64,000 nucleotides of DNA, from NCBI GenBank assembly GCA_016927065.1, contig JAFGNJ010000027.1, positions 36,506-100,505 on the forward strand, written 5' to 3'. The notes below the pieces were generated by a model. That model made no database searches, had not been told where the DNA came from, and saw only the letters and a program-made list of their open reading frames with translations. Both the position numbers and the translations under genes were made by a program. Below, piece after piece: positions 28,381 to 51,159 of this stretch (its first letter is position 1; every line of letters begins with the position of its first letter). Source of the stretch: Deltaproteobacteria bacterium (GTDB taxonomy: Bacteria; Desulfobacterota; B13-G15; RBG-16-54-18).

Positions 28381-28381
28381 C

Positions 28382-30520: not shown

Positions 30521-30573
30521 CGATTTCTCCCCGATGAGAATTTCTTTATCTTTTATTCGTTACTTATTTTATG

Positions 30574-30584
30574 AAAAAAGTTCA
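30574..30584 (-). promoter_or_regulatory. candidate ECF-type -35 element TGAACTTTTTT (variant)
   Basis: Variant 11-mer on minus strand 54 nt upstream of ATG at 30520. Confidence 0.3.
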
Positions 30585-30886
30585 TGAGGCCTTCGCCTGC
30601 TGTTGAGTTATCCGCTTATCTGGAATCGGAGGCCTTATTGTTCTATTTTTTTATAGTAAATTAAGCAGGATAAAAGACCTTGCCTTGGATCTTTGAGCTA
30701 AAATCTTCCTTTTCACGCTAGCTTTATACAGCCAATATTACACGGCAGCCTTAATGCGTCTCGTCAGCGATAACCCAAAAAGTGTTTGAACTACTAACTG
30801 ATTGTTTCCGTGCCCCTTACTGTACGCTGAACACCTTGATATCCGCGATGTAGTGACGTTATCAACACTTCTAGTTCACACACAGC

Positions 30887-31966: not shown

Positions 31967-32023
31967 ATTTCCTCCCTTTCCGTAATACGAGCTCGATCTT
32001 TTATGTAAGTGCTTATTTCCCCA

Positions 32024-32034
32024 ATAAAGGTTCA
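32024..32034 (-). promoter_or_regulatory. candidate ECF-type -35 element TGAACCTTTAT
   Basis: 11-mer on minus strand 58-68 nt upstream of ATG at 31966; overlaps stop of the upstream barrel gene. Confidence 0.35.
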
Positions 32035-33669: not shown

Positions 33670-34003
33670 TGCCTCCTTCTACATTTAACTGCTTCTCAGC
33701 ACCTGTAAAATCATGGTCGCAAAAAAGCCTCCAGAGGGCATACTTAAACCTTGAAGACTCAATACAGCGTGCTTTTTCGCAAACTTTCCTTCTCATCCTC
33801 CCCCTTCTGAAAGATAGCGACAATATTGTTGTATAATATCAGTCCTTTTCAGATTGTACTGTAGCACACTAGTTAAAAGTTTAGCCCTTGTCAAGAATAA
33901 ATATGTTCATTCGGAAGATGGGTATAGACAAAGTTATTAGCAACTTAGGTAACATAAAAGCCGTGGTTAATGTGTCAGGGACAGAAGGAGTGGTGTTATC
34001 CAG

Positions 34004-34708: not shown

Positions 34709-35788
34709 TTGTCAATGCCTGAGATAAGGGAAAGATATAAGGATGTCAAGAAGATCTTGGTCAAAGGAACAAACTGGGTAGGCGATACCATTATATCGTT
34801 CCCTGCTGTTTACTCCTTACGCCGTCTCTTTCCGAAAGCCCATATTACTGTATTGACAAAATCCCATCTCACCGGGCTCTGGAAGGCTAATACAGATCTC
34901 GATGAAGTAATACCGTATGATATGCCCACAGGCGCGGGCAGGATCTTCGGTGAGTTGAAGGTAGCGCGACGCATCAGAAAGAGAGGTATAGACCTTGCAA
35001 TCGTTTTGCCCCGATCCTTTAGCTCAGCCTGGATGGTTTTTGGGGGAGGGATCCCCCATCGCATTGGGTATAAAGGTGAGGGACGAGATTGGCTTTTGAC
35101 CGAAAGGATCGACCGCACAGGCGATCTTTTGAGTCAGCACCGTATGTACTATTATCTCCATCTCATAGAGCGCATAGGACGCTGTTCCTCCCCCCCTGTT
35201 CCTTCATTATCCCTTAATGGAAATCAAGAAAACTGGTCCAATGCATTTCTTTCGCAGCATGGCCTAAAAGGCACGGTGCTGATTGGTTTTAACCCCGGGG
35301 CCACATATGGGGAGGCCAAGTGTTGGCCTTCGGAGCGATTTATAGAATTGGGGAGGAGATTGAGAAAGGAATATGGTGCCTTTATCCTTATCTTTGGCTC
35401 TTCTCGTCCTCAAGAAAAGGCATTAAATGTCATGATTGCCCAGGGAATCGGTGAAGGATGCCTCAATCTATCAGGGGAAACCTCGTTATTACAGTTGGCG
35501 GCGCTGCTTCGACACTGTCAGGTGTTAGTCACCAATGACACGGGTACCATGCACGTTGCGGCGGCGGTGGGCACACGGGTGATGGCCATATTCGGCCCCA
35601 CTGATCCCCGGACGACCTCACCCCTGGGGGAAGGAAATGTGGTCATCCGCAAGAAAGTTTCATGTAGCCCCTGTCTCAAAAGGGTATGTTCTGAAGATCA
35701 TCGATGTATGGATTTGATAGAGGTGGAAGAAGTTTATCATACGGTATGTGCGCACATACCTGGGGGAACGGTATCGGTGAAAGGATAA
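34709..35788 (+). CDS. ADP-heptose:LPS heptosyltransferase-like glycosyltransferase (GT9)
   Basis: GT9-like N-terminus KILVKGTNWVGDTIISFPA and C-terminal TNDTGTMHVAAAVG motif. Confidence 0.8.
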   Translation: MSMPEIRERYKDVKKILVKGTNWVGDTIISFPAVYSLRRLFPKAHITVLTKSHLTGLWKANTDLDEVIPYDMPTGAGRIFGELKVARRIRKRGIDLAIVLPRSFSSAWMVFGGGIPHRIGYKGEGRDWLLTERIDRTGDLLSQHRMYYYLHLIERIGRCSSPPVPSLSLNGNQENWSNAFLSQHGLKGTVLIGFNPGATYGEAKCWPSERFIELGRRLRKEYGAFILIFGSSRPQEKALNVMIAQGIGEGCLNLSGETSLLQLAALLRHCQVLVTNDTGTMHVAAAVGTRVMAIFGPTDPRTTSPLGEGNVVIRKKVSCSPCLKRVCSEDHRCMDLIEVEEVYHTVCAHIPGGTVSVKG

Positions 35789-36543
35789 TGGAAAAGATCT
35801 CTGTTTACGTCCTTACTTTTAATAATGAGAGGACTATTGAGCGGTGTTTAGAAAGTATCCGGTGGGCCGATGAGTTGGTGATCGTGGATTCTTACAGTAC
35901 CGATGACACGCTGGATAGATGTCGCCGCTTTACCAACCAGGTCTATCAACGAAAGTGGACAAACCACCAAGATCAATATCAGTATGCCGCTGATCTGACG
36001 GCGAACCGCTGGGTGATGTTCGTTGATGCCGATGAAGAGATCCCCCCTGCGTTGGCCCAGGAGATCCAAGAGGAATTAAAGATCAAAGACGGTCAGTGGG
36101 ATGGCTATATCGTACATCGACACACCTATTACCTGGGGCGATGGATACAGCACGGTGGGTGGTACCCTGACTATGAGATCAGATTATACGATCGGAACAA
36201 GGGAAAGTGGGCAGGGGGCCTGCATGCCAAGGTAACGGTGGATGGGAGGATCAAGACCTTGCAGAACCGTTATCACCATTATACTTATCGAGACATTTCC
36301 GATCAGATTCAGACTATTGACAGATATTCTCAGATCGCCTCGGAGGATATGCTTCGAGAGGGTAAAAATTTTAGTCTTATAAATATGTTGCTGAATCCAC
36401 CCTTTCGTTTTATAAAGGAGTATATCTTTAAAAGGGGTTTTCTGGATGGGATACCTGGTTTGATAATTATTGTCTCCACTATGTTTTATGTGTTTATTAA
36501 GCATGCCAAGCTGTGGGAACGGCAAAAAGGATTGAGTGAATAA
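35788..36543 (+). CDS. glycosyltransferase family 2
   Basis: SVYVLTFNNERTIERCL...VIVDSYSTDDT GT2 signature; TAATG stop-start overlap. Confidence 0.8.
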   Translation: MEKISVYVLTFNNERTIERCLESIRWADELVIVDSYSTDDTLDRCRRFTNQVYQRKWTNHQDQYQYAADLTANRWVMFVDADEEIPPALAQEIQEELKIKDGQWDGYIVHRHTYYLGRWIQHGGWYPDYEIRLYDRNKGKWAGGLHAKVTVDGRIKTLQNRYHHYTYRDISDQIQTIDRYSQIASEDMLREGKNFSLINMLLNPPFRFIKEYIFKRGFLDGIPGLIIIVSTMFYVFIKHAKLWERQKGLSE

Positions 36544-36544
36544 T

Positions 36545-37552
36545 ATGGCGGGCAAAGAGACCTTTGAGGGGAAACGGGCACTGATCACCGGAGGGTTAGG
36601 CTTTGTGGGAAGCAACTTGGCTATTCGGCTTGTGGAGGAAGGAGCTGCAGTTACTCTTGTGGATAATATGATCCCCCGTCAAGGTGGCAATTTGTTTAAC
36701 ATTTCTCCCATTGCCGACAAGGTCCATGTAAACTTCAGCGACGTGAGAAATCAACTCTCCATGGATCATCTTGTGCAGGGACAAGATTATATTTTCCATC
36801 TGGCTGGCCAGGTGAATCACGTGGAGAGCGTGCGCAATCCCATTCAGGACCTTGATATCAACTGCCGGGGCACCTTGGTTCTGTTAGAGGCCTGTAGGCG
36901 GTTCAACAGAGATGTCAGGATTATTTTTTCAGGTACCAGGGGAGAATACGGTGCAAGTGTCCATCTGCCCGTCGATGAAAACCATCCCACGAATCCTAAA
37001 GGAATATACGCCGTGACCAACTTAACGGCGGAAAAGATGATCCTCGTCTATCACGATATCCATAAGATCCACGGGGTTTGCCTCAGGATTACCAATACCT
37101 ACGGTGAGCGTCACCAGATGCACCACGATGAATTTGGTGTGCTGAATTGGTTCATCCGTCAGGCCATGGATGGTAAGACCATACCGGTCTTTGGGGATGG
37201 GATGATCTTGCGAGATTTTTTGTACGTAGAAGACGTGGTAGATTGTTTTTTGATGGTGACGACCTGTCCTCAGGCCTATGGCGAGGTATTCAACGTGGGC
37301 ACGGGGGTTCCCATCAATTTTGTTGATCTGGCCAAGAAGATTGTAGCGATCGCAGGTAGTGGCAGGATGGACTTCACCGAATTTACCCCGGAACGGAAAG
37401 AAGTAGAACCGGGGGACTACTATACTGATATTGCCAAGATCAAACAGGTGGTGGGCTGGGAGCCTAAGACCTCCCTTGATGAGGGGATCAGCAGGACCAT
37501 AGCGTTTTATCGACAATATAAAGACCACTATTGGAAGGACCCTGCTCAGTGA
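36545..37552 (+). CDS. NAD-dependent sugar epimerase/dehydratase (SDR family)
   Basis: Rossmann GGLGFVGSNL; catalytic YxxxK region. Confidence 0.85.
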   Translation: MAGKETFEGKRALITGGLGFVGSNLAIRLVEEGAAVTLVDNMIPRQGGNLFNISPIADKVHVNFSDVRNQLSMDHLVQGQDYIFHLAGQVNHVESVRNPIQDLDINCRGTLVLLEACRRFNRDVRIIFSGTRGEYGASVHLPVDENHPTNPKGIYAVTNLTAEKMILVYHDIHKIHGVCLRITNTYGERHQMHHDEFGVLNWFIRQAMDGKTIPVFGDGMILRDFLYVEDVVDCFLMVTTCPQAYGEVFNVGTGVPINFVDLAKKIVAIAGSGRMDFTEFTPERKEVEPGDYYTDIAKIKQVVGWEPKTSLDEGISRTIAFYRQYKDHYWKDPAQ

Positions 37553-38712
37553 AAATCCTCCATCTTTTTTCGGATTGGAAGTGGACGGGGGCGGCCGAAC
37601 CGGTGGTAAACCTTTGCTCGGCCCTCCAGCAGCGAGGACATGAGGTGGTTCTGGCCTATCGGTGTCCTCCCTTTGAGGTCTCGGAAAGTCTAGAAATAAG
37701 AGCGAGGGAGAAAGGCGTTTGTGGCACTGGTGTCTTTCGTCTTGAACCTATCTCTAAGCTTCACAAGATATATTTCTTAAAGGCACTTGTTGGTGATATC
37801 AAAGATATCGCGCGCTACATCGATCAGGATCAATTTGATATCGTCACTGTTCATAATTCTCATGATCATATCGTGGGGGGGTTAGCGGTGAAGGCTTCAA
37901 GAAGACATCCCCCGATAATCCGGATGGATCATAAGCAGAATTCCCTGAAGGCGGATCTTATCAGCAAGTGGTTTTTCAAGAGATATACCGATGGCCTTAT
38001 TACTTTTTCTAAAGGGGGAGAGGAGAGGTTGACGAACGGTTTAGGATTTCCTCCTGACAGGGTGATCAAAGTACCTACAGCCGTGGACCTCACCAGGTTT
38101 GATCCACAGAGGGGCTACAAAGATATGCGCCCGGTTTTCGGGATACCCCCCACATCTCCCGTCGTGGGGATCGCGGCCAGGTTTCAGAGATATAGAAGGA
38201 CCGATATCCTTTTGGAAGCCGTATCGCATCTGACTAAAGATGTTCCTGAGGTAAGGCTTTTATTGGTAGGCCACAGTAGCCAGATGCAAAAGAGTATCAT
38301 AGAACCTATGGAAAATTTAGGGATATCTTCTCACGTGATTTTAGCCGGGTATCGAATGGATGACTATGTCGATACCCTTGCCTGTATGGATGTCTTCGTC
38401 TTGCTTACCCCTGGTTCTGATGGAACGGCCCGTGCCCTGCGGGATGCCATGGCCATGGGGAAGCCGGTAGTTGCAACCACAAAAGGTATTTTGCCGGAGC
38501 TCGTACGTAATGGGGTTAACGGATTTATCGTACAGGAGACTCCGCAGGCCATCTGCCAAGCCCTTTTACCCCTCGTGAAGGATCAGCAATTGCGCCATTC
38601 AGTAGGAAAGGCTGCTCGGAAGACGGCCCAAGAGGAATTTCGCCTGGAGCGTCAGGCCGAAGCGGTGGAGGCGTTTTATCAAAAGATAGTGGAGGCGCTT
38701 CCTCGTTCATGA
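37531..38712 (+). CDS. glycosyltransferase family 4 (GT-B fold)
   Basis: GT-B C-terminal domain pattern; start may be GTG 37549 (GTGA overlap with upstream stop). Confidence 0.8.
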   Translation: MEGPCSVKILHLFSDWKWTGAAEPVVNLCSALQQRGHEVVLAYRCPPFEVSESLEIRAREKGVCGTGVFRLEPISKLHKIYFLKALVGDIKDIARYIDQDQFDIVTVHNSHDHIVGGLAVKASRRHPPIIRMDHKQNSLKADLISKWFFKRYTDGLITFSKGGEERLTNGLGFPPDRVIKVPTAVDLTRFDPQRGYKDMRPVFGIPPTSPVVGIAARFQRYRRTDILLEAVSHLTKDVPEVRLLLVGHSSQMQKSIIEPMENLGISSHVILAGYRMDDYVDTLACMDVFVLLTPGSDGTARALRDAMAMGKPVVATTKGILPELVRNGVNGFIVQETPQAICQALLPLVKDQQLRHSVGKAARKTAQEEFRLERQAEAVEAFYQKIVEALPRS

Positions 38713-39878
38713 AGATCGCCCTTGGCATACGAAATTTTTCTCCCGCCAAGGGTGGGGCTGAAAGATATCTGGTAGAGCTCACACAGTTTCTTGTGCAAGA
38801 GGGGCATGAGGTTCACGTCTTTACGCACAGTTTCGACAAAAGAATAGAAGGCCTTTATCTACATAACGTAACCCTTTTTCCTTTCCCCAAAGGGCTGCGC
38901 ATCCTCTCCTTCGCCTCGAAGTGTCATAAACTCATGAAACGGGATAATTTCGATGTGATCATAGGGGTGGGCAATACCTGGCAGGCAGATCTCTTACAGC
39001 CGCACGGAGGGGTCCATTGGAAATGGTTTTGGCGGAGTTTAAAGGCTTATCAAAGTCCGTGGCTTTGGGGCGCAAAGTTTCTGGGGAGGGTTTTGAGTCC
39101 TAAACAGTGGATTGAAGGGATCGTGGAGGATGCCCCTTATCGTACAGGGGTGAAACAGATTGTAGCCATTTCCGAGATGGTTAAGAGAGATATCGTTGAT
39201 TATTATGGTATTCCCGAGAAGAAAGTAGTGGTGATTTACAATGGTGTTGATACCGAATACTTCCACCCTCGTAACAAAAAATATAGGAAGAAGATCAGAA
39301 GTCAGTATGGTTTAGGCGCACAGGATGTCGTGCTCATATTCGTTGCGCATAACTTCAGGCTTAAAGGATTGCGATGCCTTATTCAGGCCCTACCTTTGAT
39401 TAAGAAAAAGAATGAGAAGATCAAACTTTTGGTGGTAGGCCGTGATAACAACGATCCTTATCGGCGTCTCGCCAAGAAGATGGGATGTGAGAGTGATGTC
39501 TTTTTTGCTGGGGGAGTACGGTATCTTGAGCGATATTATCCGAGTGCGGATATTTTGGTACATCCTACTTTTTACGATGCCTGTTCCTTGGTGGTTCTAG
39601 AGGCCTTGGCCAGTGGGGTGCCGGTGATCACGACGCAATATAATGGTGCAGGGGGAATCATTGCAGATGGGAAGGAAGGGTTTGTATTGGAAGATCCAAG
39701 AAAGGTGGAAATCTTAGCTAAAAAAATCTTGTATTTTGCAGATCCTATAAAGCTTAAAGAGGCCTCGTCTGCTGCCAGAAATTTAGCCAAAAGATATCCG
39801 CTAAAAACGTCTTATGGGGCAATGTTGAAGACCATGCAATCTATTGCGTCTAAAGACTCGCAGTTAAGACAGTTATGA
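38709..39878 (+). CDS. glycosyltransferase family 4 (GT-B fold)
   Basis: GT-B pattern incl. EALASGVPVITT motif; 4-nt overlap upstream. Confidence 0.8.
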   Translation: MKIALGIRNFSPAKGGAERYLVELTQFLVQEGHEVHVFTHSFDKRIEGLYLHNVTLFPFPKGLRILSFASKCHKLMKRDNFDVIIGVGNTWQADLLQPHGGVHWKWFWRSLKAYQSPWLWGAKFLGRVLSPKQWIEGIVEDAPYRTGVKQIVAISEMVKRDIVDYYGIPEKKVVVIYNGVDTEYFHPRNKKYRKKIRSQYGLGAQDVVLIFVAHNFRLKGLRCLIQALPLIKKKNEKIKLLVVGRDNNDPYRRLAKKMGCESDVFFAGGVRYLERYYPSADILVHPTFYDACSLVVLEALASGVPVITTQYNGAGGIIADGKEGFVLEDPRKVEILAKKILYFADPIKLKEASSAARNLAKRYPLKTSYGAMLKTMQSIASKDSQLRQL

Positions 39879-39887
39879 GTTAGGAAG

Positions 39888-40565
39888 ATGAATTTTTTCG
39901 ATTACGGCTTAATTAAATCATTTATTCAGGCATTTCGATACCAAGGGCCGGTAGTGGAGATTGGATCTTTAGTGGTAGACGAAAGTATGAAAGTTTTTGA
40001 TGTGAGGAGTCTATTTCCAAAGAAGAGCTTTTCTGGGGTGGATTTACGGCACGGTGCTGGAGTCGATATCATGGGTGATATTGAAGGATTACCCTTTCAG
40101 CAACATTCTATTGGTACGCTCCTGTGTCTTGACACCATCGAGCATGTCTGGGATGTCCATGCCGCTTTTAAAGAGATAAAAAGGGTATTAAAAAAGGATG
40201 GAATCGCCGTGATTTCCTCCGTATTCAATTTTAAGATTCACGCGTGTCCCCACGATTTTTGGCGGTTTACCCCTGAAGCCTTAGATAGACTCACCAAGGG
40301 TTTCCCGTACAAAATCTTAGGATATCAAGGATATCGAAAACGACCGAGGCATGTTTTTACCGTCGTCTTTGGCAAGGAGTATCGCACTCAAGATATTGAG
40401 AGTCAGATAACGGAATTTAAAAAGTTACTTCAAGGAGAGGCAGTTAGATATTTTTCGGTCTTTGACAGGATGCGTCACTATATTGCTAGCCTCTTTGCCA
40501 AGAAACCGCTCATGGATTTTAGGTACTATAACCACATAGAGGTTCTTCACAAGATTAAGGTTTGA
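39888..40565 (+). CDS. class I SAM-dependent methyltransferase
   Basis: Methyltransferase-fold motifs (VEIGS..., LDTIEHVWD, LKKDGIAVIS). Confidence 0.65.
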   Translation: MNFFDYGLIKSFIQAFRYQGPVVEIGSLVVDESMKVFDVRSLFPKKSFSGVDLRHGAGVDIMGDIEGLPFQQHSIGTLLCLDTIEHVWDVHAAFKEIKRVLKKDGIAVISSVFNFKIHACPHDFWRFTPEALDRLTKGFPYKILGYQGYRKRPRHVFTVVFGKEYRTQDIESQITEFKKLLQGEAVRYFSVFDRMRHYIASLFAKKPLMDFRYYNHIEVLHKIKV

Positions 40566-40592
40566 TTATTCCCTACATTAGGGGAGATTGCC

Positions 40593-41180
40593 ATGAATGT
40601 GACAAAAGCAATAAAAAGGACAATTATTCCTCCTGACCCCTTTTTTATGAATAACAACAAGCTTTATAAAAAGTATCAAATTGGCGATTGGACATATGGT
40701 ACCCCTAAGGTGTTCTCATGGCGTGAAGGTACGACCTTAAAGATTGGACGGTTCTGTGCAATTGCTGATGGTGTAATAATTTTATTGGGCGGAGAACACA
40801 GGATAGATTGGGTGACCACCTACCCGTTTACTAAGCTCTTTCCGAAGGCCAAGGGGTTTACGGGCCATCCTCGTTCCAGAGGTAATGTTATTATAAAAAA
40901 TGATGTGTGGATTGGTACAGATGCATTAATCCTATCGGGCGTTACGATAGGTAACGGCGCTGTGATAGCTGCCCGTAGTGTTGTCAAGGAAAATGTGTTA
41001 CCTTATTCAATAGTTGCTGGGAATCCAGCAAAGCATATTAAGTTTCGGTTTAGTAAGTCAATAATAGATGATTTACAGAAAATTGCGTGGTGGAATTGGC
41101 CTTTGTCAAAAATTGAGGAAGCATGGCCATTGTTGCTTTCGTCGGATATAGGAGCATTTGTAGACAAGTATAAAGCGTGA
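40593..41180 (+). CDS. hexapeptide-repeat acetyltransferase (left-handed beta-helix)
   Basis: Hexapeptide repeats VWIGTDALILSGVTIGNGAVIAARSVV, NPAKHI C-terminus. Confidence 0.8.
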   Translation: MNVTKAIKRTIIPPDPFFMNNNKLYKKYQIGDWTYGTPKVFSWREGTTLKIGRFCAIADGVIILLGGEHRIDWVTTYPFTKLFPKAKGFTGHPRSRGNVIIKNDVWIGTDALILSGVTIGNGAVIAARSVVKENVLPYSIVAGNPAKHIKFRFSKSIIDDLQKIAWWNWPLSKIEEAWPLLLSSDIGAFVDKYKA

Positions 41181-41318
41181 ACACTGTTTGATGCTTTTGA
41201 CGATCAATATGTACATGCAAAAATTATTATAGCAAAATTGAAAAATTAAGAATGAGATCGTCAAAAAAGTTTCTAACGATCAACAGAGATGCCATGATTT
41301 TGTAATAACTAAGGTGAT

Positions 41319-41930
41319 TTGATGATAACTTGGAGTCAGCTTGTCAAAGGTCGCGATCAGATCCACGAGCGCTATCCTACGATATGGGGACTAATGTTGA
41401 TCAAAAGGCCCTCCAGATTGGCAAAGAGTAGGTATGCGCATCCGCGATGTGGGGAGAATAGAAGAATTGACAATAGAGTGAAACATATTTATCCTGATAT
41501 CTGTTATGAAAATATGTATGAAGATCAAAAATTGCTTCATGATTATTAGTCATTAGATGCGATTGATGGGTAATTTGATCTCATTATACTTTTGAAAGCC
41601 ATAGAACATTTGGAGCTGGGAGAAGGGATGACGATGTTAAGCCGGCTCAATGAATTGCTCGTAGATGGAGGTAGGTTGGTTATCAGTGCTCCCAATATTT
41701 TTAACCCCAGCCGGTTTTGGTTTAAAGCGACTCACAAGGTAGCCTATAGCTATGAAGAGTTGGGAGGGATTGTACTTGGTCAGAGCTTTGATGTATCGGG
41801 AATTTATCGTACCTCTAATGATTCCTTTTTAAAGTATTTTTGGCGTCTTACCCTCATTTGTTTCCCGCCTAGAATTTTATATAAGGATTTTGTCAAATCA
41901 ATTCTTATTACGACCTGCAAAAGAGGTTGA
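41319..41930 (+). pseudogene. decayed copy of the locus-specific methyltransferase paralog (intact at 44697 and 47091)
   Basis: Two short ORFs with near-identical nucleotide stretches to 44697..45335 but missing the SAM-binding middle and broken frame. Confidence 0.6.
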
Positions 41931-42016
41931 TCTATAGTTCATCGCAAGGTGTGAGTGGATAAGAACATGATAGAAGCCAATCACTTGATTAAAAAACTCT
42001 TAAAAGGAGATAACAG

Positions 42017-42736
42017 GTGAATGTGAAAGAACTTTCAATTTTTATCAATAACACCCAAAGAGACTTGTACAATTTTATTTATCAAAAAATTTTTGTTAAT
42101 TTTAAATTAAAGAAAAATGTCATTGACCATTTTCATAAACTTTATTATGAATCACATAAAGTAACTTGGGAAAACACATTTTGGTTAGGTATTCAAGCCC
42201 ATAAATGCCCTTTAGATCTCTGGATTTACCAAGAGATTATCTTTGAGATTAAGCCAGATATAATAATAGAATGTGGAACATTTCATGGTGGAAGTGCTTT
42301 GTTTTTAGCATCTATATGTGATTTGTTAAATAAGGGGAAAATTATTTCTATAGATATAGAAAACAAAAAAGACAGACCAAAACATGAAAGAATCACATAT
42401 TTACTTGGTTCTTCAACTTCTGAAGAAATCGTAGAGAAAGTTCAAATCTTCATAAAAAACATTGATAGGATTATGGTCATTTTGGATTCAGATCATAGCA
42501 AAGAACATGTCCTAAGGGAATTAGAAATTTATAGTAAATTTGTGACAAAAGGCAGTTATATCATTGTTGAGGACACAAACATTAATGGCCATCCTATAGG
42601 ACCAGACTTTGGGCCAGGTCCGATGGAGGCAGTTAAGGAATTTTTAAAGATGAAAAGAGATTTTGCCATAGATAAGTCAAGAGAAAAATTTTATCTAACT
42701 TTTAATCCAGATGGATATCTCAAAAGGGTAAGATGA
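42017..42736 (+). CDS. CmcI-family (cephalosporin hydroxylase-like) sugar O-methyltransferase
   Basis: ECGTFHGGSALFLA motif; strongly AT-rich coding; GTG start. Confidence 0.65.
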   Translation: MNVKELSIFINNTQRDLYNFIYQKIFVNFKLKKNVIDHFHKLYYESHKVTWENTFWLGIQAHKCPLDLWIYQEIIFEIKPDIIIECGTFHGGSALFLASICDLLNKGKIISIDIENKKDRPKHERITYLLGSSTSEEIVEKVQIFIKNIDRIMVILDSDHSKEHVLRELEIYSKFVTKGSYIIVEDTNINGHPIGPDFGPGPMEAVKEFLKMKRDFAIDKSREKFYLTFNPDGYLKRVR

Positions 42737-42803
42737 CAAGAAGAAAATACTTTTTCGTCTGAACTACCAAAAGAAGATATCTTTTTATCTGAACTATTGT
42801 GAA

Positions 42804-43463
42804 ATGGATAGTAAACGAAGGAACTTATATTATTTCAGCGTTCGAAATGATCTTATCCGACTTATCCCTCTCCATGCAAAACGAATTTTAGAAGTGGGAT
42901 GTGCAGGTGGTATGACCGGGAAAGCATTAAGGGAGAAAGGATTTAAAGAAATTGTAGGTATTGAGGTCAATAGAAAAATCGCTCAAAAAGGGAAATTGTA
43001 TTACGATAAATTAATTATTGGAGATGTAGAGAAAATAAAACTTCCATTTGAAAAAGGGCATTTCGATTGTATTCTATATGGTGATGTCTTAGAGCATTTG
43101 GTGGATCCGTGGAAAGTGTTAAAAGAGCACAACGCATTGTTAAAGTTGGAGGGGGTCATTATCTGTAGTATCCCGAACGTACGACATTACAAGATTATCA
43201 AAAAACTGGTCTTCAGTGGAACTTGGGAGTATACTGAGTATGGGATATTGGATAGAACCCATCTCCGTTTTTTCACACTGGATTCAATTAGAAAGATGTT
43301 AAGAGAGACGGGTTTTGAGATCAGAGATTTGATAAAGCGCCCTTCGGGCGCAAAATGGTTGAAGGTTTTAAATCGACTTTTAAAGAATCTAATAATTAAT
43401 TTTTTGGTGGGGCAATATACGGTTGTGGCGGTAAAAAGAGAAGAGGCGGAAGGTAGCGTATAG
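42804..43463 (+). CDS. class I SAM-dependent methyltransferase
   Basis: Motif I ILEVGCAGGMTG, motif post-II GDVLEHLVDP. Confidence 0.8.
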   Translation: MDSKRRNLYYFSVRNDLIRLIPLHAKRILEVGCAGGMTGKALREKGFKEIVGIEVNRKIAQKGKLYYDKLIIGDVEKIKLPFEKGHFDCILYGDVLEHLVDPWKVLKEHNALLKLEGVIICSIPNVRHYKIIKKLVFSGTWEYTEYGILDRTHLRFFTLDSIRKMLRETGFEIRDLIKRPSGAKWLKVLNRLLKNLIINFLVGQYTVVAVKREEAEGSV

Positions 43464-43626
43464 TCAAGATGGGCATTTCGGCTCGATGTTAAAAAAAATT
43501 GCTTGCATCTCGCTGATCTCCTTGATGCGACAATTTTTGATATTTTGATATTAATATTTTTAAAAATAGTTCGTATGAGGGGTCATATAACTTCTCATTT
43601 GACAAATCTTCTTCGAACGGGCAAAG

Positions 43627-44538
43627 ATGGCTGAACTTCAGGTAAGCATTGTCATTCCATGCTACAATAGCGCAAAATTTATTGATACAACCTTGCAAGC
43701 AGTATTCAATAGTACTTACAAGGACTTCGAGGTACTAGTTATAGACGATGGTTCCACAGATGGTACCAAGAAGGTTTTACAAGAGAAAGGTTGGATCAAA
43801 AAGGTCCGATACGTTTACCAGGAAAACAAAGGCATAGCTGGTGCACGCAATGCGGGGATTACAATCGCTCAAGGGAAATACATAAGTCTTTTAGATCATG
43901 ATGACCAACCGTTACCTGAAAAATTGGAAAGAATGGTTTCTTACCTGAATAACCACCCTGAATTTAAGATGGCTTACTCGCCATGTATTATTGAACGTAT
44001 TGATAAAGGTGGAGAGCGCTATAAACAGGGTATATACTCATCACATACGCCCCGTTGGCTTCGAAACAAGTATGAAGGTGATCTTTTTGAAAATCTATTT
44101 TATATGCGCATTCTTATTACCAGTGTTCTTATGTATAAGGAGGCGGCTTTGGCCGTCGGTCTTTTTGACGAAACCTTTAAGGTATGTGAAGATCTAGAGT
44201 TCTACTTGAGATTTGGCGCACAGTATAGAATTGGTTTTATTAAAGAACCTTGCAATGTTCATATCGAACACTTTTCAAATAGCAGCAAGCATTTTGCCGA
44301 TTTATACCCTACCTATGCAATTCTTGCGTATAATCGTCACTATCAAAGCCTAAAAAAGAAAAGTTCCAGGGCCGAAAAGATTTATCGTGAGCGCATGACA
44401 GCTGCCTACAGAGGGCTTGCAGACGTATCATTAAAGAACGACAATAGAAAGGGCGCAAGAAAATATGCTGTTGATGCAATCCGCATGAATCCATACCATC
44501 CGAAATATTATTTTAAAATGTTTAAAACTTGGCTATGA
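43627..44538 (+). CDS. glycosyltransferase family 2
   Basis: VSIVIPCYNSAKFI...VLVIDDGSTDGT, DxD-like DHDD. Confidence 0.85.
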   Translation: MAELQVSIVIPCYNSAKFIDTTLQAVFNSTYKDFEVLVIDDGSTDGTKKVLQEKGWIKKVRYVYQENKGIAGARNAGITIAQGKYISLLDHDDQPLPEKLERMVSYLNNHPEFKMAYSPCIIERIDKGGERYKQGIYSSHTPRWLRNKYEGDLFENLFYMRILITSVLMYKEAALAVGLFDETFKVCEDLEFYLRFGAQYRIGFIKEPCNVHIEHFSNSSKHFADLYPTYAILAYNRHYQSLKKKSSRAEKIYRERMTAAYRGLADVSLKNDNRKGARKYAVDAIRMNPYHPKYYFKMFKTWL

Positions 44539-44696
44539 ATTGAGCAAGAAAGTGTTCTTGGAAATTTTTGATATTGGGAAATATGTTCAACATCATCTGG
44601 TAAACAGAAGAACAAGCTAGCTTTTTAGTACAAAAGTGTTTTAATAAACTATCCTACACTGAGTTAGTAAGAAACAGACAAATATAGAGGGGTAGT

Positions 44697-45335
44697 ATGT
44701 TAGATATGTTATATTGGAGTCAGCTTGTCAAAGGTCGCGATCAGATCCACGAACGATATCCTACGATATGGGGTTTACGGTTAATCAAGAGACCCTCCAG
44801 GTTGGTTAAAACCCTTCTTCGTCCAGGTATGCGCATCCTTGATGTCGGCGCGAGTGACAGAAGGATGGAGAGAGGAATTAAGGAGATTTACCCTAACGTT
44901 ATTTACAAAAGCATGGATGTTGATCGCGGATTGCCTCATGATTATTATACTTTGGATGGAATAAATGAGCAGTTCGATCTTATTATGCTTTTTGAAGTTA
45001 TAGAGCATCTGGAGTTGGAAGTAGGGATAAAAATGTTAAGTCGGCTCAATGAATTGCTCGTACATGGAGGTAGGTTGGTTATCAGTACTCCCAATATTTT
45101 TAACCCCAGCCGATTTTGGTTCGATGCGACTCACAAGGTAGCCTATAGCTATGAAGAGTTGGGAGGGATTTTGCTTGGTCAGGGGTTTGAAGTACTGGAT
45201 ATCTACCGCACCTTTAACGCTTCATTTCCAAAGTATTTTGTGCGCCTCACCCTTTTCTACCCCTTGCATAGGATTTTAAATGTAGATTTTGCCAAGTCTA
45301 TTGTATTTCTGGCCCAAAAAAGAGGGAACCGGTGA
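44697..45335 (+). CDS. methyltransferase-fold protein, locus-specific paralog family (copy 2)
   Basis: ILDVGASDRRMERG motif I-like, EVIEHLE motif; paralog of 47091 and of the decayed copy at 41319. Confidence 0.65.
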   Translation: MLDMLYWSQLVKGRDQIHERYPTIWGLRLIKRPSRLVKTLLRPGMRILDVGASDRRMERGIKEIYPNVIYKSMDVDRGLPHDYYTLDGINEQFDLIMLFEVIEHLELEVGIKMLSRLNELLVHGGRLVISTPNIFNPSRFWFDATHKVAYSYEELGGILLGQGFEVLDIYRTFNASFPKYFVRLTLFYPLHRILNVDFAKSIVFLAQKRGNR

Positions 45336-45380
45336 TGAGAAAATATTACCTTCATATACCAACAGCAAGCAGAGTGATGT

Positions 45381-45986
45381 ATGCGCATTGCTTATAAACT
45401 ATCAAAATTCTTTTTTAAATTGGCCAATCAAAAGCAGGTTATCGAATGGGTAAAAATATATGGTGCGTTTGATAAGACTAATTACGAAGATTATACAATA
45501 CGCAATCTTAAGAGCGAGTCCTCAATCTACCATGGCGAGCTTATTAAATGGGCACAAGACATTATGCCTTCTCCTCGCAAAGTTTTACTATCAGGTGATT
45601 GCAACAACCCCGCACAATTTGTGCAGGAAAAAATTCGAGCTAAGGAGATGTACACAGCAGGTCTATTAGATGTTGATTTCAAATGGGGTTTCGATGAAGA
45701 TCCTCCCACAATGGGCCAGTTTGACCTTATTATCAGTCAAGCAATTTTGGAGCATCTGCTAAATCCTTATAAGCATATGCACGATCTGGCTGGTCTTTTG
45801 GTGCCTGATGGTTATTTGATAGTGCATACTGTAATCCCTGGTTTTTGATATCATCGATATCCTATTGATGCCTTTCGTTTTTTCCCTGACTGGTTTGAAG
45901 AAATAGCGAAGAGGTTAAATTTTTCGATAGTTAAAAAAAGAATCAAACGGACCCACATATTTTATATGTATAAAAAAATCAGTTAA
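45381..45986 (+). pseudogene. methyltransferase-fold-like ORF interrupted by an in-frame TGA at 45846-45848
   Basis: Reading frame continues through the TGA for 45 more codons to TAA at 45984; TGA replaces a likely Trp codon. Confidence 0.5.
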
Positions 45987-46060
45987 GAGCAGGAAAGATT
46001 TGAATGTAGAAGAGCTTTGATTTGCTATGTGTATTATAAAACTAAGACACAAGGGTGACA

Positions 46061-47044
46061 ATGAAGGTAACCATCTTACTCTCGCGTAATGCTGGTACAA
46101 GATATCGATTTCCTCAGTTTATACAAGCCCTTACCAGAGAAGGAATACAGGCAGAAATATATAGGTTTCAATCTTCTCTTCCACTTTTTCTTAAGTTGTT
46201 ACAAGATTTGAAGAAAGCAGATATCGTAGTAATATTGAGAAAACTCTTATCACCATGGAAACAGCAGTTAATCCGAAGATTCGCAAAAAAAATTGTTTTT
46301 GAATATGATGATTCAATTATGTATCGATCTTCACGTTGGGAGAATCAATACTCCCGTACCCGGAGAGCACGATTTAAAGATATGGTGAAGATATGCGACC
46401 TCATCATTGCTGGCAATCAATTTCTCAAGGGAGAAGCGACGAAGTACGTGAATGAGGAAAAAGTGCATGTTATACCCACGGTCGTTGATATTGAAAGATA
46501 TGTACGAAAGCAATATCATGATTCAAAAGATGAAGTGATAATTGGCTGGTTTGGAAGCAAGGGGACCCTCTATTACCTCAAGAAACTTGTTCCGGCGCTT
46601 ACAGAAATCGGCAAAAGATTTCCCTTTGCTCAATTGAAGATCGTATGCAATGATTTTCTTGATATCCCCAATATGAAAGTGATAAAAAAAGAATGGTCAG
46701 AAACGGATGAGGTTGCTGATCTTCAGAGCTTTGATATCGGGTTGGGTCCTTTGACGGATGATGTATGGACACGAGGTAAGTGTGGTCTGAAACTGGTTCA
46801 ATATCTAGCAGTGGGGATCCCAGTCATTTGTTCCCCGGTAGGAGCGAATAAGGAAATTGTTAGCGATGGTGATGTTGGATTATGGGCCCGGGATACGCGG
46901 GAATGGATAGAGAAACTTAGTTTACTCATTGAAAAACCAGAGATGAGAAAAAAGATGGGGGAAAAAGGAAGAGAGAGAATAGAGAAGCAATATTCTCTTC
47001 AGGCCGTTGCCCCTAAATTAATTGATATACTAAGCAGATTGTGA
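46061..47044 (+). CDS. GT-B fold glycosyltransferase (GT4-like), paralog of 48477
   Basis: Similarity to 48477 protein (YSRTR...FLK..A.K, WFGSKGTLYYL vs WIGDHGSIHYL); ATG 46061 preceded by AAGGGTGA. Confidence 0.75.
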   Translation: MKVTILLSRNAGTRYRFPQFIQALTREGIQAEIYRFQSSLPLFLKLLQDLKKADIVVILRKLLSPWKQQLIRRFAKKIVFEYDDSIMYRSSRWENQYSRTRRARFKDMVKICDLIIAGNQFLKGEATKYVNEEKVHVIPTVVDIERYVRKQYHDSKDEVIIGWFGSKGTLYYLKKLVPALTEIGKRFPFAQLKIVCNDFLDIPNMKVIKKEWSETDEVADLQSFDIGLGPLTDDVWTRGKCGLKLVQYLAVGIPVICSPVGANKEIVSDGDVGLWARDTREWIEKLSLLIEKPEMRKKMGEKGRERIEKQYSLQAVAPKLIDILSRL

Positions 47045-47090
47045 AATATCTTTTTAAGATAATTGGAATGTCTATTTCCAAGGAATAACG

Positions 47091-47741
47091 ATGTTGGACT
47101 GGAGTCAAATAATTCATTATCGTGATCAAATTCATGAACGTTATCGGAAGATATGGAACATTCCTTTGATTAAGAGACGGTTTAGCCTCTTAGAGAGAAA
47201 CATTCGTCCTGGGATGCGCCTTCTCGATGTGGGGGCTGGAGAGCGAGGGATGGAAGATAAGATCGTGAAAAAACACAATGGAGTAATATACAAAAGTATG
47301 GACATAGATCGTCGTCTCCACCATGACTATTACTCGCTAGATGATATTGATGAACAGTTTGATCTTGTTTTGCTCCTCGATGTCATTGAGCATGTGGAGT
47401 TGGAGGAAGGGGTGAAGATGTTACAGCGAATCAATGAACTCCTCGTCGATGGTGGGAATTTGATTATCAATACGCCGAACATATTTAATCCTAATCGTTT
47501 TTGGTTAGATGCTACTCATAAAGTGGCATACAGCTATGAGGAGCTGGGTGGTATCTTGCTCAGCCAAAGCTTCGATGTGTTGGAAATCTATCGTACCTAT
47601 AATGATTCATTCCCAAAGTATATTCTCCGCCTTACACTTTGTTATCCCCTGCATAGAATGTTAAATGTTGATTTTGCAAAATCTATTATAATCTTGGCGA
47701 GCAAGAAGAAGGATACTGTAGAAGTACGGGTGTCTGAATGA
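47091..47741 (+). CDS. methyltransferase-fold protein, locus-specific paralog family (copy 3)
   Basis: Full-length similarity to 44697 protein; LLDVGAGERGMED motif I. Confidence 0.65.
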   Translation: MLDWSQIIHYRDQIHERYRKIWNIPLIKRRFSLLERNIRPGMRLLDVGAGERGMEDKIVKKHNGVIYKSMDIDRRLHHDYYSLDDIDEQFDLVLLLDVIEHVELEEGVKMLQRINELLVDGGNLIINTPNIFNPNRFWLDATHKVAYSYEELGGILLSQSFDVLEIYRTYNDSFPKYILRLTLCYPLHRMLNVDFAKSIIILASKKKDTVEVRVSE

Positions 47742-48469
47742 GCGTTAGTAGAATAAGGGCCCATAATTTGGTAATAGAAATCCTGAAAAATGCGGGAAAG
47801 CCAGGAAAAATTCTGGATGCTCCTGCGGGAACCGGTACAATATCTAAAACATTGCAGGATGCAGGATTTGAAGTCTATGCCGCTGATATAACACCTGAGT
47901 TGTTTAAGCTTCCAGATATTCATTGTGAGAAGGCAGACCTCAATTCCCGTCTCCCTTATAAGGATGGATTTTTTGATTATATTTTAAATTCCAATGGTAT
48001 TGAACATCTGGAGGACCAGTATAATTTTGTCCGGGAGTGTTACCGGATTCTAAAGCCAAACGGCAAACTACTTATCACGACCCCTAATATCCTGAACTTA
48101 AAAGCGCGGGTTGCATATATGTTACTTGGCTTCCATACGTTTCATGATAGACCCCACGATGAAGTAGGTGATTACGAGGGCGGCGGGCATATTAATATGG
48201 CCTCCTACTTCGATTTGCGAGTAAATCTGCACAGAAACGGGTTTAAAATCATCTCAATTTCAACGCATATGTACAGTGCTACTGCTCTGTTTTTTTCCTT
48301 TCTTGTTCCGTTTGTGTATGTGATGATGTTTAAATCCTTTAAGAGAGAAAAGAATAGAGAACAGAGAGTGAGGAACAAAGACATCGCAAAACATGTTTTA
48401 TCAGCCGATCTTCTGTTTGGTAAAAAGCTTTTTGTGCTCGCAGAAAAAGATCACCGTTATAAAAAATAG
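47738..48469 (+). CDS. class I SAM-dependent methyltransferase
   Basis: Motif I ILDAPAGTGTIS, YRILKPNGKLLITTPN. Confidence 0.8.
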   Translation: MSVSRIRAHNLVIEILKNAGKPGKILDAPAGTGTISKTLQDAGFEVYAADITPELFKLPDIHCEKADLNSRLPYKDGFFDYILNSNGIEHLEDQYNFVRECYRILKPNGKLLITTPNILNLKARVAYMLLGFHTFHDRPHDEVGDYEGGGHINMASYFDLRVNLHRNGFKIISISTHMYSATALFFSFLVPFVYVMMFKSFKREKNREQRVRNKDIAKHVLSADLLFGKKLFVLAEKDHRYKK

Positions 48470-48476
48470 TTACGCT

Positions 48477-49475
48477 ATGCGAGTTCTCTTTCTCATCCAA
48501 GGTTGGGATGTAGCAGCTAGTCGGTATAGAGTACTTCAATATCTGCCATATCTGGAGAAAAGGGGGGTCGAGACCCACGTAGCCACGTATCCCAGGGGTA
48601 TTACCGACTTTGCAACGTTCTTGAGGAGGGTTGCAGATTATGATGTGCTCTTTCTTCAGAGAAAAAGATATAATCCACCTTTTTTGCAGCTTTTACGCTG
48701 GAGGGCACAGGGGATCGTGTATGACTTTGACGATGCTGTGATGTATAGAAACTCTACGGCGCCATCACCTTACTCCAGAACCCGTCAGAAAAGATTTGCC
48801 CGTATCATAAGGGCCGCAGATTATGTCATTGCTGGTAATAATTTCTTGAAAGATCAAGCTTCGAAATTTACCGAACAGGTAACTGTGATACCTACGTCAA
48901 TTGACCGGGATCGATATGATGTTAAAGACTACCAAGAAAAAAAGAACAGGGTATCGATCGGGTGGATCGGAGATCACGGGAGCATCCACTATCTGCAAAA
49001 AATGCGGTCTATCTTTGAAAAACTGGGCAGGAGATATCCTGACCTCGAGCTTAAAATCATCTGCGATACCTTCTTTGACTGTAAAAACATTGAGGTTGTC
49101 AAAAAGCCGTGGAGCCAGAAAGAAGAGGTTGAGGACTTGAAAAGCCTAGACATCGGTGTGATGCCTCTCTTGGATGATCCCTGGTCGTGGGGCAAATGTG
49201 GACTCAAGATACTGCAGTATTATGGAGTAGGAGTGCCGGTAGTCTGCACGCCCGTGGGTGTCAACAGGGATGTGGTACAAAATGGGGTGAACGGTTTTTG
49301 GGCCATGACCAATGACGAATGGATTGAGAAGCTCTCCGTATTGATTGAAGACCCTTCCCTGCGGCAAAAGATGGGGTTACGAGGCCGAGAGTTGGTGAGA
49401 AAGTCATATTCCATACAAGGGTGTGCGTCAATATTTTATGGGGTGTTGGATGAGGTGGCCCGTGGGGGTGTCTGA
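48477..49475 (+). CDS. GT-B fold glycosyltransferase (GT4-like), paralog of 46061
   Basis: Paralog of 46061 protein; ATG at 48477. Confidence 0.75.
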   Translation: MRVLFLIQGWDVAASRYRVLQYLPYLEKRGVETHVATYPRGITDFATFLRRVADYDVLFLQRKRYNPPFLQLLRWRAQGIVYDFDDAVMYRNSTAPSPYSRTRQKRFARIIRAADYVIAGNNFLKDQASKFTEQVTVIPTSIDRDRYDVKDYQEKKNRVSIGWIGDHGSIHYLQKMRSIFEKLGRRYPDLELKIICDTFFDCKNIEVVKKPWSQKEEVEDLKSLDIGVMPLLDDPWSWGKCGLKILQYYGVGVPVVCTPVGVNRDVVQNGVNGFWAMTNDEWIEKLSVLIEDPSLRQKMGLRGRELVRKSYSIQGCASIFYGVLDEVARGGV

Positions 49476-51159
49476 TGATCTATCATATAAGCGGGGGGTG
49501 AAGGGATGGCGATGGACCCTTGTCGAAGGCACGGCTCAGGAGTTACCCCCCTCGTTGCTCGATGATCCAGAGCGATTTCTGTGCAAACACCCTCCACAAA
49601 AAGTTTTAAAAGAATCCCCTGTCCGAACGGTCTCGATTATTTCAGGGCCTCGTGGAAGGCTCTTCCTGAAACGCTATAAGATAAAAAAATTCAAAGAGAA
49701 ATTTAAATACCTCGCGGTCCCCTCCAAGGCACACAAAGAATGGTTGATGGGGCGTCAAGCACTGCGCAAAGGAATCCCCACCCCCATGCCTTTGGCCATA
49801 GCCGAGAGGCGAAAAGGGATTTTTTTACAAGATGCCTTTCTCATAACCCAAGCCATTTTCCCTTCAAGCTCCTTCATTGAATTGATTTTGGACGGAAGAC
49901 ATAAGGACCTTCTATCCCCTGCAGCCCGATTAATCCATCAGATCCATGAAGCCGGTCTCTTCCATCAGGATCTGCATGCCGGCAATATCTTGGTCGGCGA
50001 AAATAATAACAAGCTTTACCTCATTGACCTCCATCGTTCCAGATTCGTAAAGAGTGTTTCCCAACGCAGGAAACTATGGAACCTGGCGCAGTTTTTTTAT
50101 TCTCTCAAAGGATTAATTTCGAATAAAAATAAAAAGGTTTTTTTAAATAGGTACGATAAAGAAGGGAAGACATTTAACAAGGGATTTGAGGAAACTTTGC
50201 GGAGAATCGAGAGGGTGGAGGAGCGGATTTATCGGCGGCATATGAAGAGCAGGACGAAGCGATGTCTCAAAGACAGCGGAGGATTTTATGTCGCCAAGGA
50301 TGATTCCTGGCGGATATGGGCACGGAGGGGGTGGGAGTTCCAGACATTGCTGCAGCTCATAAAAAAACACAAGAAAATTGTTGACAAGGGTACCGATGGC
50401 TTGATCAAGACAGATCGCCGTTCAGCTATCTCCCTTTTCAATTATAGGAAGACCAGGATTTGCGTGAAGGAATACCGTTATAGGGGGGGGCTGGGATGCA
50501 TAAAGGACTGTTTCAGAAGATCCAGGGCCCGCAGGGGATGGCTGATGGGCAATGGGTTGGTGGTCAGGGGCGTCCCAGGGATTACGCCGCAGGCCCTCTT
50601 GGAGCGCAGGGTGAGAGGGTTTTTAAAGGATGCCTTTCTCATCATGGAGACCCCCCCCGGCTATGTCGAGCTTGACCGCTATATGGTTCGGTCTTTTGAA
50701 GGCTTCCCTCATAAAAAACTTAAGGCAAGGACCTTTCTGATGGCCTTGGCAGGGTTCATAGCTCACCTGTATACGCTCAGGATTTCTCATAGGGACCTGA
50801 AGGCCTGCAACATCATGGTGCGGGAGGAGCACGTGGGGTGGGAATTCGGTTTAGTCGATATGGATGATATCCGTTTGGACAAAAACATCCGCACCAGGAG
50901 GTTTGTGAAGGCATTGATTCAATTACATACGTCTACTCCCCTTTTTATCGGCATGGACGATCGAATTGCATTCCTGAGCGAGTATCTGCGGTTGATCGGC
51001 CGAGGTGACATAAGGGAGATCATCAGCGCGGTGAGCAGGGGCAGTAGGGGAAGACAATTGGTCTATGTAGACCCTCAGGGTGATGTGATCATGGATGTTG
51101 CTTGGGAAAAGACTTGCGCTTCCTGTTGTGAACCCGCTCTTTCAAAAGAGGACTTGTGA
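49423..51159 (+). CDS. tandem two-domain lipopolysaccharide (Kdo/WaaP-type) kinase-like protein
   Basis: Two kinase catalytic loops: FHQDLHAGNILV...LIDLHRS and SHRDLKACNIMV...LVDMDD; start uncertain. Confidence 0.7.
   Translation: MRQYFMGCWMRWPVGVSDDLSYKRGVKGWRWTLVEGTAQELPPSLLDDPERFLCKHPPQKVLKESPVRTVSIISGPRGRLFLKRYKIKKFKEKFKYLAVPSKAHKEWLMGRQALRKGIPTPMPLAIAERRKGIFLQDAFLITQAIFPSSSFIELILDGRHKDLLSPAARLIHQIHEAGLFHQDLHAGNILVGENNNKLYLIDLHRSRFVKSVSQRRKLWNLAQFFYSLKGLISNKNKKVFLNRYDKEGKTFNKGFEETLRRIERVEERIYRRHMKSRTKRCLKDSGGFYVAKDDSWRIWARRGWEFQTLLQLIKKHKKIVDKGTDGLIKTDRRSAISLFNYRKTRICVKEYRYRGGLGCIKDCFRRSRARRGWLMGNGLVVRGVPGITPQALLERRVRGFLKDAFLIMETPPGYVELDRYMVRSFEGFPHKKLKARTFLMALAGFIAHLYTLRISHRDLKACNIMVREEHVGWEFGLVDMDDIRLDKNIRTRRFVKALIQLHTSTPLFIGMDDRIAFLSEYLRLIGRGDIREIISAVSRGSRGRQLVYVDPQGDVIMDVAWEKTCASCCEPALSKEDL

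Follow-up and report, generated by a model that had tools for sequence, protein, structure and literature searches.

Methyltransferase and glycosyltransferase modules in a probable lipopolysaccharide outer-core locus of an uncultured member of the Thermodesulfobacteriota

We describe two tandem gene modules that each join methyltransferases to a glycosyltransferase (GT) and that lie in a 64,000-nucleotide stretch of DNA, hereafter the window (positions 36,506 to 100,505 of the forward strand of contig JAFGNJ010000027.1, assembly GCA_016927065.1), from the metagenome-assembled genome (MAG) of an uncultured member of the Thermodesulfobacteriota (“Deltaproteobacteria”). All coordinates below are those of the window. 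We consider it probable that the region forms the outer, variable portion of a lipopolysaccharide (LPS) core-oligosaccharide operon and that it carries methylating GT modules. Module a consists of MT-A1 (44697..45335), a class I S-adenosylmethionine (SAM) methyltransferase, the interrupted accessory methyltransferase MT-B1 (45381..45986) and the GT-B-type glycosyltransferase GTa (46061..47044); module b consists of the MT-A1 paralog MT-A2 (47091..47741), the accessory class I methyltransferase MT-B2 (47738..48469), which overlaps the end of MT-A2 by 4 nt, and the GTa paralog GTb (48477..49475). All six lie on the + strand.

An earlier note on this DNA, made from the letters alone, had described these genes as two cassettes with paralogous first and third members and differing middle methyltransferases, and in these respects it was right. 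MT-A1 and MT-A2 share 68% identity over 208 amino acids (E 5e-107), and GTa shares 43% with GTb over 317 amino acids (E 2e-103). When all operon proteins were compared with one another the two pairs scored 294 bits each and every other methyltransferase or GT pair scored 48 bits or less, so that the paralogy within the window is real and far beyond chance. The middle genes MT-B1 and MT-B2 share just a 43-residue stretch around a SAM motif (E 5e-05). The cassette boundaries stood less completely: all six are coding regions on the same strand, but 45381-45986 is not an open frame, and while the two cassettes hold, the repeat pattern starts about 3.4 kb further upstream with a third copy of MT-A, the pseudogene psi-MT-A (41322..41930, + strand).

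The modules are embedded in an operon that runs from about 34.7 to 51.2 kb, entirely on the + strand. Its open reading frames (ORFs), from 34709 to 51159, are separated by short gaps or overlap, and profile searches place all of them among the GTs, methyltransferases, acetyltransferases, epimerases or kinases, in the order GT9, GT2, NAD-dependent epimerase/dehydratase, two GT4s, methyltransferase, hexapeptide acetyltransferase, modules and double kinase. The conserved left end is a WaaF-like heptosyltransferase II of family GT9 (34709..35788, +; PF01075) that scores 211.1 bits against TIGR02195, the model for heptosyltransferase II, where the cut-off is 134.6, and that has orthologs of 68-80% identity in the same place in related loci. 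Two canonical GT4 enzymes (37531-38712 and 38709-39878, +; PF00534 and PF13439), a pair kept in nearly all related loci, form the left flank of the variable interval. The right flank is a double Kdo/WaaP-type LPS kinase of 578 residues (49423..51159, +; PF06293, 112.9 bits in two stretches), whose scores against the NCBIfam equivalogs KdkA and RfaP lie below the cut-offs and whose orthologs (55-76% identity, 563-569 residues) close the variable interval in related loci. Its true start is probably a little downstream, since a start at the GTG at 49423 gives an overlap of 53 nt with GTb. Between these flanks, from 39 to 49 kb, the GC content falls to 30-42% as compared to about 50% outside, and eight methyltransferase genes or remnants are packed into 9.6 kb.

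The earlier note assigned the modules to a surface polysaccharide, and we depart from it here. Profile searches of the operon ORFs found no Wzx, Wzy, Wzz or Wzm/Wzt, no initiating phosphotransferase, no WaaL and no ABC exporter. An interval with heptosyltransferase II and a WaaP/Kdo-type kinase, in an operon without flippase, polymerase, ligase or ABC exporter, is therefore best understood as the outer, variable section of an LPS core locus of the lipooligosaccharide (LOS) type, its product being a core oligosaccharide. It could be argued instead that the modules build the repeat unit of an O-antigen, capsule or exopolysaccharide, that is, a true polysaccharide: a low-GC island in which genes for GTs, methyltransferases and an acetyltransferase abound does resemble an O-antigen cluster, CmcI-type and other methyltransferases are known from O-antigen and glycopeptidolipid (GPL) pathways, and the window holds a phosphomannomutase/phosphoglucomutase gene at 19807-21225. 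Set against the missing polymerization and export functions, and against the bracketing of the interval by the same heptosyltransferase and kinase in every related locus, we judge this alternative to be improbable.

The outer-core assignment gains perspective from 93 related loci (labelled L###), of which 8 came from genomes, 5 from exact protein look-ups and 80 from metagenomes, the last dereplicated by eye. Their architectures were labelled by tblastn with the window proteins only, so that the gene orders given here show genes homologous to window genes. The conserved frame of GT9, GT2, epimerase, GT4 and GT4 on the left and double kinase on the right recurs, and the distance from the second GT4 to the kinase is 1.4-5.8 kb in the 24 complete cases as compared to 9.5 kb in the window, the largest version seen. 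Seventeen of the 24 hold one MT-A and one GT of the GTa/b family and two hold one MT-A with two such GTs; single cases have two MT-A with two GTs and two MT-A with one GT; two have one MT-A without a GTa/b-type GT; and the remaining one, with neither, was mislabelled, an unrelated kinase-like match having been taken as its right flank. The cassette number thus varies among relatives, as a comparison suggested in the earlier note was meant to reveal, and is usually one MT-A/GT module and sometimes two. The accessory methyltransferase between MT-A and GT likewise changes from locus to locus and may be absent, MT-B1, MT-B2 or a CmcI-type enzyme. For instance, the order is MT-A, MT-B1, GTa, CmcI, GTb in L009; MT-A, MT-B1, GTa, MT-B2, GTb in L016; MT-A, GTa, MT-A, CmcI, GTb in both L003 and L012; MT-A, MT-B2, GTb in L005; and methyltransferase, GT2, MT-A, GTb in L017. 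Orthologs of MT-B2 (70-87% identity) sit between MT-A and GT in L002, L005, L016, L021 and L035.

These loci also bear on the age of the duplication. Each window paralog is closer to orthologs at the same relative position in other genomes (72-87% identity) than to its partner in the window. A search with MT-A1 yielded 654 homologs, and in over 100 foreign protein clusters the identity to MT-A1 is 69-87%, which equals or exceeds its 68% identity to MT-A2. Orthologs of GTa are 60-82% identical to it, and GTb is no closer to GTa than are dozens of foreign members of the family (43-50%). In neighbour-joining trees, which carry no support values, MT-A1 groups with first-position copies (L009, L012, L016) and MT-A2 with second-position or b-type copies (L003, L005, L012, L037, L040), to which it is 80-87% identical, while GTa groups with first GTs and GTb with the GTs proximal to the kinase. 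Both a and b types occur together in L003, L009, L012, L016 and L018. Because the foreign same-position orthologs are closer than the window partners, modules a and b are to be read as old paralog lineages, inherited or exchanged as units, and not as products of a local duplication.

Could the second module nevertheless have arisen by recent tandem duplication of one three-gene cassette within this genome, followed by replacement of the middle gene to yield a new methylation pattern? The two cassettes do stand in tandem with the same gene order, and within the genome the two MT-A and the two GT proteins are each other's only close relatives; across genomes, by contrast, the copies are, taken literally, no closer to each other than to other members of their families, the outcome that the earlier note had named as speaking against its proposal. 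Moreover, psi-MT-A is nearest to the window's own MT-A1, at 76.5% DNA identity (65% to MT-A2) versus at most 72% for foreign copies, so that some duplication within or near this lineage is plausible for the pseudogene. But DNA identity between the window copies is only 68% for MT-A1/MT-A2 and 51% for GTa/GTb, their similarity stops at the gene ends without extending into intergenic DNA, and the position-specific orthologs of each copy, together with the joint presence of a and b in several lineages, make such an event highly improbable. A recent tandem segmental duplication was rejected on the same grounds of identity, extent and closer foreign orthologs. A search for repeated DNA at the module borders that might have served as recombination sites returned only short AT-rich matches at chance level. 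What survives of the modular duplication first proposed is that the tandem units are homologous and that their number and middle methyltransferase vary among related genomes; the duplication was neither recent nor local.

Upstream of module a the locus is a patchwork. The psi-MT-A copy has suffered two deletions, of 11 nt after 41427 and of 4 nt after 41450, which destroy SAM motif I, and carries two in-frame stops at 41547 and 41571; under NCBI-style ORF calling it would split into fragments of 76 and 112 amino acids. It heads another module that continues with a CmcI-type methyltransferase, a further methyltransferase and a GT2. The CmcI-type gene (42017..42736, +; rhamnosyl O-methyltransferase-like, GC 30%) matches PF04989 at 229.8 bits (cut-off 23.2) and scores 184.6 bits against NF045824, below that model's equivalog cut-off of 400. 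The next gene, a class I methyltransferase (42804..43463, +; Methyltransf_23/11 in Pfam), is paired with the following GT2 (43627..44538, +; PF00535, 120.7 bits). It is 79% identical in DNA to a gene of L017 that likewise stands before a GT2 and then MT-A, and the GT2 itself is 81% and 77% identical in DNA to its counterparts in L017 and L028, both of which lie just upstream of an MT-A. In longer alignments, the MT-A/CmcI pair of L003 is collinear, at 76%, with window positions 41505-42734, and the methyltransferase and GT2 pair of L017 matches 42803-44684 at 79-81%. Judged by these alignments, the window locus is a mosaic that joins modules found separately elsewhere. Module b and the methyltransferase/GT2 module look intact in this genome; accessory methylation has probably been lost from module a; and what is left of the MT-A/CmcI unit has, to all appearances, no working MT-A, in a locus that is decaying in parts.

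The loss proposed for module a turns on a single codon. The MT-B1 reading frame ends at a TGA (45846-45848) after 155 amino acids, the orthologs having 201, and the same frame runs on to a TAA at 45984-45986. At the TGA site the five closest homologs aligned carry tryptophan, encoded by TGG in the L009 and L016 orthologs. Compared with L009, the 45 codons beyond the TGA are 89% identical and those before it 72%; as the downstream codons are still so well kept, the G-to-A change should be very recent or else a polymorphism of the population, and the TGA is probably a recent nonsense mutation. Alternatively, the codon might not be a defect at all, and module a might be fully active, if the TGA had arisen by error in sequencing or assembly, belonged to a minority allele, or were recoded or read through. 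The intact sequence past the TGA would fit, as would the fact that one G-to-A change explains the codon, and minority alleles can enter MAG consensus sequences. On the other hand, the 155-residue product is recorded in both the NCBI and the Logan assemblies, 13 of the 18 listed genes of the operon end in TGA (MT-A1 included, and the pseudogene frame end counted), so that it is a normal stop here, and homologs carry tryptophan or other ordinary residues at the site in place of a conserved cysteine or selenocysteine; we therefore regard a harmless TGA as doubtful, although of the alternatives weighed in this report it is the one we take most seriously. Selenocysteine insertion or recoding in particular was rejected, given that more distant homologs show S, H, N, G, Q, P, C or F at this site with no conserved cysteine and that TGA is the usual stop of the operon. 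With a nonsense codon in MT-B1 and one MT-A copy dead, the idea that the modules provide alternative methylated additions can be kept only in part, for not all of them would be active.

MT-A is a small family, for which a search of 1.84 billion proteins gave 80 representative clusters at E<=1e-30, and its members are stand-alone proteins of about 210 amino acids. MT-A1 and MT-A2 match PF13489 at 36.2 and 37.1 bits (cut-off 27), and the AlphaFold2 model (predicted local distance difference test score, pLDDT, 79; predicted template-modelling score, pTM, 0.81) matches more than 1000 class I methyltransferases in the PDB at E<=1e-3 with template-modelling (TM) scores of 0.5-0.6, all of them generic; a PDB sequence search with MT-A likewise gave weak generic matches only. 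Its motif I, classically D/E-x-G-x-G-x-G, is atypical, with the consensus LDVGASDRR and, in MT-A2, LDVGAGERG, only the first glycine and the following alanine being invariant. Throughout the family the first 35 residues are conserved, with invariant W7, H18, R20 and W25. MT-A1 probably starts at the ATG at 44706, with 44697 as an alternative start, and its public annotation (MBN1255776.1, 177 amino acids) begins about 35 codons too late. Neither MT-A, MT-B1, MT-B2 nor GTa/b has a specific relative of solved structure or an NCBIfam equivalog, all NCBIfam matches falling far under the cut-offs. MT-B2 is placed by Pfam in Methyltransf_23/11, and we infer a sugar O-methyltransferase role for MT-A, MT-B1 and MT-B2 from gene context only, their matches staying below the equivalog level.

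The partner GTs are short (about 330 amino acids) and GT4-like. GTa scores 48.1 bits against PF00534 (cut-off 26.4) and 29.8 against PF13439 (28.5), and GTb 38.4 and 32.0 against the same models. The AlphaFold2 model of GTa is a GT-B fold (pLDDT 93) whose best Foldseek matches in the PDB are all of GT4 type (GlgM, PglA, BshA, MshA, PimA and HepE), with query-normalised TM scores mostly of 0.65-0.80. A PDB sequence search with GTa gave weak generic matches only, and the fold search indicates an enzyme class but no specific function. When aligned to a canonical GT4 and to BshA (2jjm), the family has G239 and Q247 at the two glutamate positions of the EX7E motif, and in a 34-sequence family alignment the corresponding motif G-K-C-G-L-K-x-x-Q has G239, K240, C241, K244 and Q247 invariant. 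This atypical site, with its G...Q arrangement and invariant lysines, might mean an unusual donor or reaction. GTb is always the GT next to the kinase, with orthologs of 73-86% identity directly upstream of the kinase in L005, L009, L012 and L016. A third MT-A-associated GT subfamily, 45-48% identical to GTa and GTb, occurs in L002, L021, L023, L027, L035, L015 and L007; between it and the kinase there is always an unlabelled gene of about 1 kb.

Which genes form the unit is suggested by linkage. Counting MT-A copies with enough downstream sequence, a GTa/b-family GT adjoins MT-A in 27/44 and is one gene away in a further 11/44 (38/44 together), and among the 32 copies flanked by 2.2 kb of sequence on either side, 29 have a GT of any window type no more than two genes downstream and 23 have one no more than two genes upstream. 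Often just 0-12 nt separate MT-A from GTb, and accessory genes insert on the upstream side. As the linkage to the downstream GT is the tighter one, the register MT-A ... GT is favoured, and the shifted register, GT then MT-A, appears less likely from these statistics.

Several points weigh against the picture of outer-core modules in which MT-A methylates the sugar added by its downstream GT. Lipid A and Kdo genes and the WaaL ligase were not seen in the window, leaving the heptosyltransferase and the kinase as the basis of the LPS assignment. The sequence gives neither the donor sugar nor the acceptor nor the methylated atom, the PDB and NCBIfam searches giving generic classes only, and because GTa/b lack both EX7E glutamates, to call them GT4-like hexosyltransferases that use a nucleotide sugar is an assumption. 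Finally, MT-A is better conserved across MAGs (70-87% identity) than the GT that accompanies it, and it occurs with three subfamilies of GT; for this reason its target could be some conserved feature and not the sugar just added. It might, for instance, serve the upstream GT, or act on an inner-core feature such as the phosphate added by the WaaP-type kinase, giving a methyl phosphate. In most single-module loci MT-A indeed immediately follows the second GT4, with the kinase two genes further on, and four to six loci have no GTa/b-type GT downstream of it (L022, L076, L080, L088 and the second copies in L018 and L043). The single fusion found also runs from GT4 to MT-A-like domain. Yet the tighter downstream linkage just described, the duplication of MT-A along with the GTs while the kinase stays single-copy, and an operon that offers no WbdD-like fusion, coiled coil or ABC transporter lead us to think such a target unlikely. 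The fusion in question, the distant protein P0498 (616 amino acids, outside the window), is the one long MT-A fusion among the 150 best representatives. It has a canonical GT4, with EX7E and not of GTa/b type, N-terminal to an MT-A-like domain 33% identical to MT-A1, and suggests a possible Rosetta-stone link of MT-A-like methyltransferases to GT4 enzymes.

If MT-A does act with its downstream GT in outer-core synthesis, each GT would add one sugar to the growing lipid A-core acceptor at the cytoplasmic face of the membrane, and the tightly linked MT-A would O-methylate that sugar. An accessory methyltransferase would then add a further methyl group and the acetyltransferase an acetyl group, and the double kinase would phosphorylate core heptose or Kdo. 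The outcome would be a strain-specific, heavily methylated outer core. More tentatively still, we speculate that MT-A and the EX7E-less GT-B of about 330 residues could constitute an undescribed, self-contained module that adds one sugar and methylates it, specific to the LPS cores of Thermodesulfobacteriota and a few other anaerobes, stackable one to three times and open to interchangeable extra methyltransferases, from which methyl-rich, strain-specific outer cores might arise; this is a possibility to which we give less than even credence. Literature searches returned nothing specific on the MT-A/GT pair, on methyltransferase and GT outer-core modules, or on methylated LPS cores in Geobacter or related bacteria.

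Several known systems offer points of comparison. Hypervariable LOS and LPS outer-core loci between conserved core genes are familiar from the LOS classes of Campylobacter jejuni (waaC-waaF) and the outer-core (OC) loci of Acinetobacter baumannii. The window shares with these its conserved flanking inner-core genes, a variable low-GC interval of GT and modifier genes, gene-level mosaicism and pseudogenes; it differs in belonging to an uncultured and different clade, in an interval dominated by methyltransferases and in an MT-A/GT pair without a characterised member. By this analogy the region would work like known hypervariable outer-core loci and would be notable for its density of methyltransferases and its uncharacterised pair of MT-A and EX7E-less GT. 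With retaining GT4 enzymes of the PimA, MshA, BshA, PglA and WaaG type GTa shares the GT-B fold and above-cut-off matches to PF00534 and PF13439, but GTa/b are shorter and have both EX7E glutamates replaced.

The mycobacterial pathways for GPL, LOS and methylmannose polysaccharide (MMP) likewise place GTs beside several SAM methyltransferases, the window gene at 42017-42736 belongs to PF04989, and the MMP mannosyltransferase ManT is among the structural matches of GTa, at rank 29. Unlike in those pathways, MT-A, MT-B1 and MT-B2 are generic class I enzymes without an equivalog, and the context is that of a Gram-negative LPS core. A methyl phosphate is produced by WbdD of E. coli O9a, a kinase-methyltransferase that terminates the chain. 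The likeness lies in a SAM methyltransferase and a sugar kinase of eukaryotic-like fold encoded in one LPS-related cluster; in the window, however, kinase and methyltransferase are separate, the kinase is of the WaaP/Kdo family with two domains, MT-A is linked to a GT and not to the kinase, and there is no ABC-transporter O-antigen pathway.

The accessory class I methyltransferase after the GT4 pair (39888..40565, +; Methyltransf_11 in Pfam) is found only in some relatives, e.g., L001, L009 and L012. The same patchy presence is seen for the accessory hexapeptide-repeat O-acetyltransferase (40593..41180, +; PF00132), whose Vat/CatB and WbbJ-like model matches are weaker and under their cut-offs. 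In relatives, a B12-binding radical SAM gene separates the GT2 from the epimerase (compared stretches L009 2937-4349 and L012 2749-4146), and L012 also has a DegT aminotransferase; the window has no such radical SAM gene at 35704-37552 and has one elsewhere, at 57721-59067 on the - strand. Upstream of the GT9, at about 24900-33700 (- strand), lie some 9 kb of extra genes as compared to L009 and L011, where a phosphoglycerate mutase nearly adjoins the GT9. They include an extracytoplasmic function (ECF) sigma factor (29023-29625), a zf-HC2 anti-sigma factor (28382-29026), a subtilase (26815-28464), proteins with Ig-like domains and several ORFs without a family match. Far from the operon, at 2249-3982, a single ORF of 577 amino acids joins an IspH/LytB domain (residues 3-274) to a UbiA prenyltransferase domain (310-544), and adjoins a polyprenyl synthetase (1076-2158) and a protein of the carotenoid-synthesis family (352-999).

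In its organization the locus otherwise shows the mosaicism typical of surface-glycan loci and reveals no new principle, its duplication being old and shared among lineages. The identification of the MT-A/GT pair nevertheless gives glycobiologists a defined and testable pair of enzymes, a small methyltransferase and a GT4-like enzyme without the EX7E glutamates. The interval between the GT4 pair and the WaaP-type kinase could serve as a marker for typing surface variation in metagenomes. The LPS structures of the uncultured lineages related to sulfate reducers are essentially unknown, and for one of them we predict from the locus a core oligosaccharide modified by as many as six active methyltransferases and by an acetyltransferase; the variable part of the locus is built from a small set of exchangeable methyltransferase and GT modules. 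We speculate that variation of this outer core might be driven by the pressure of phages or predators in sediments.

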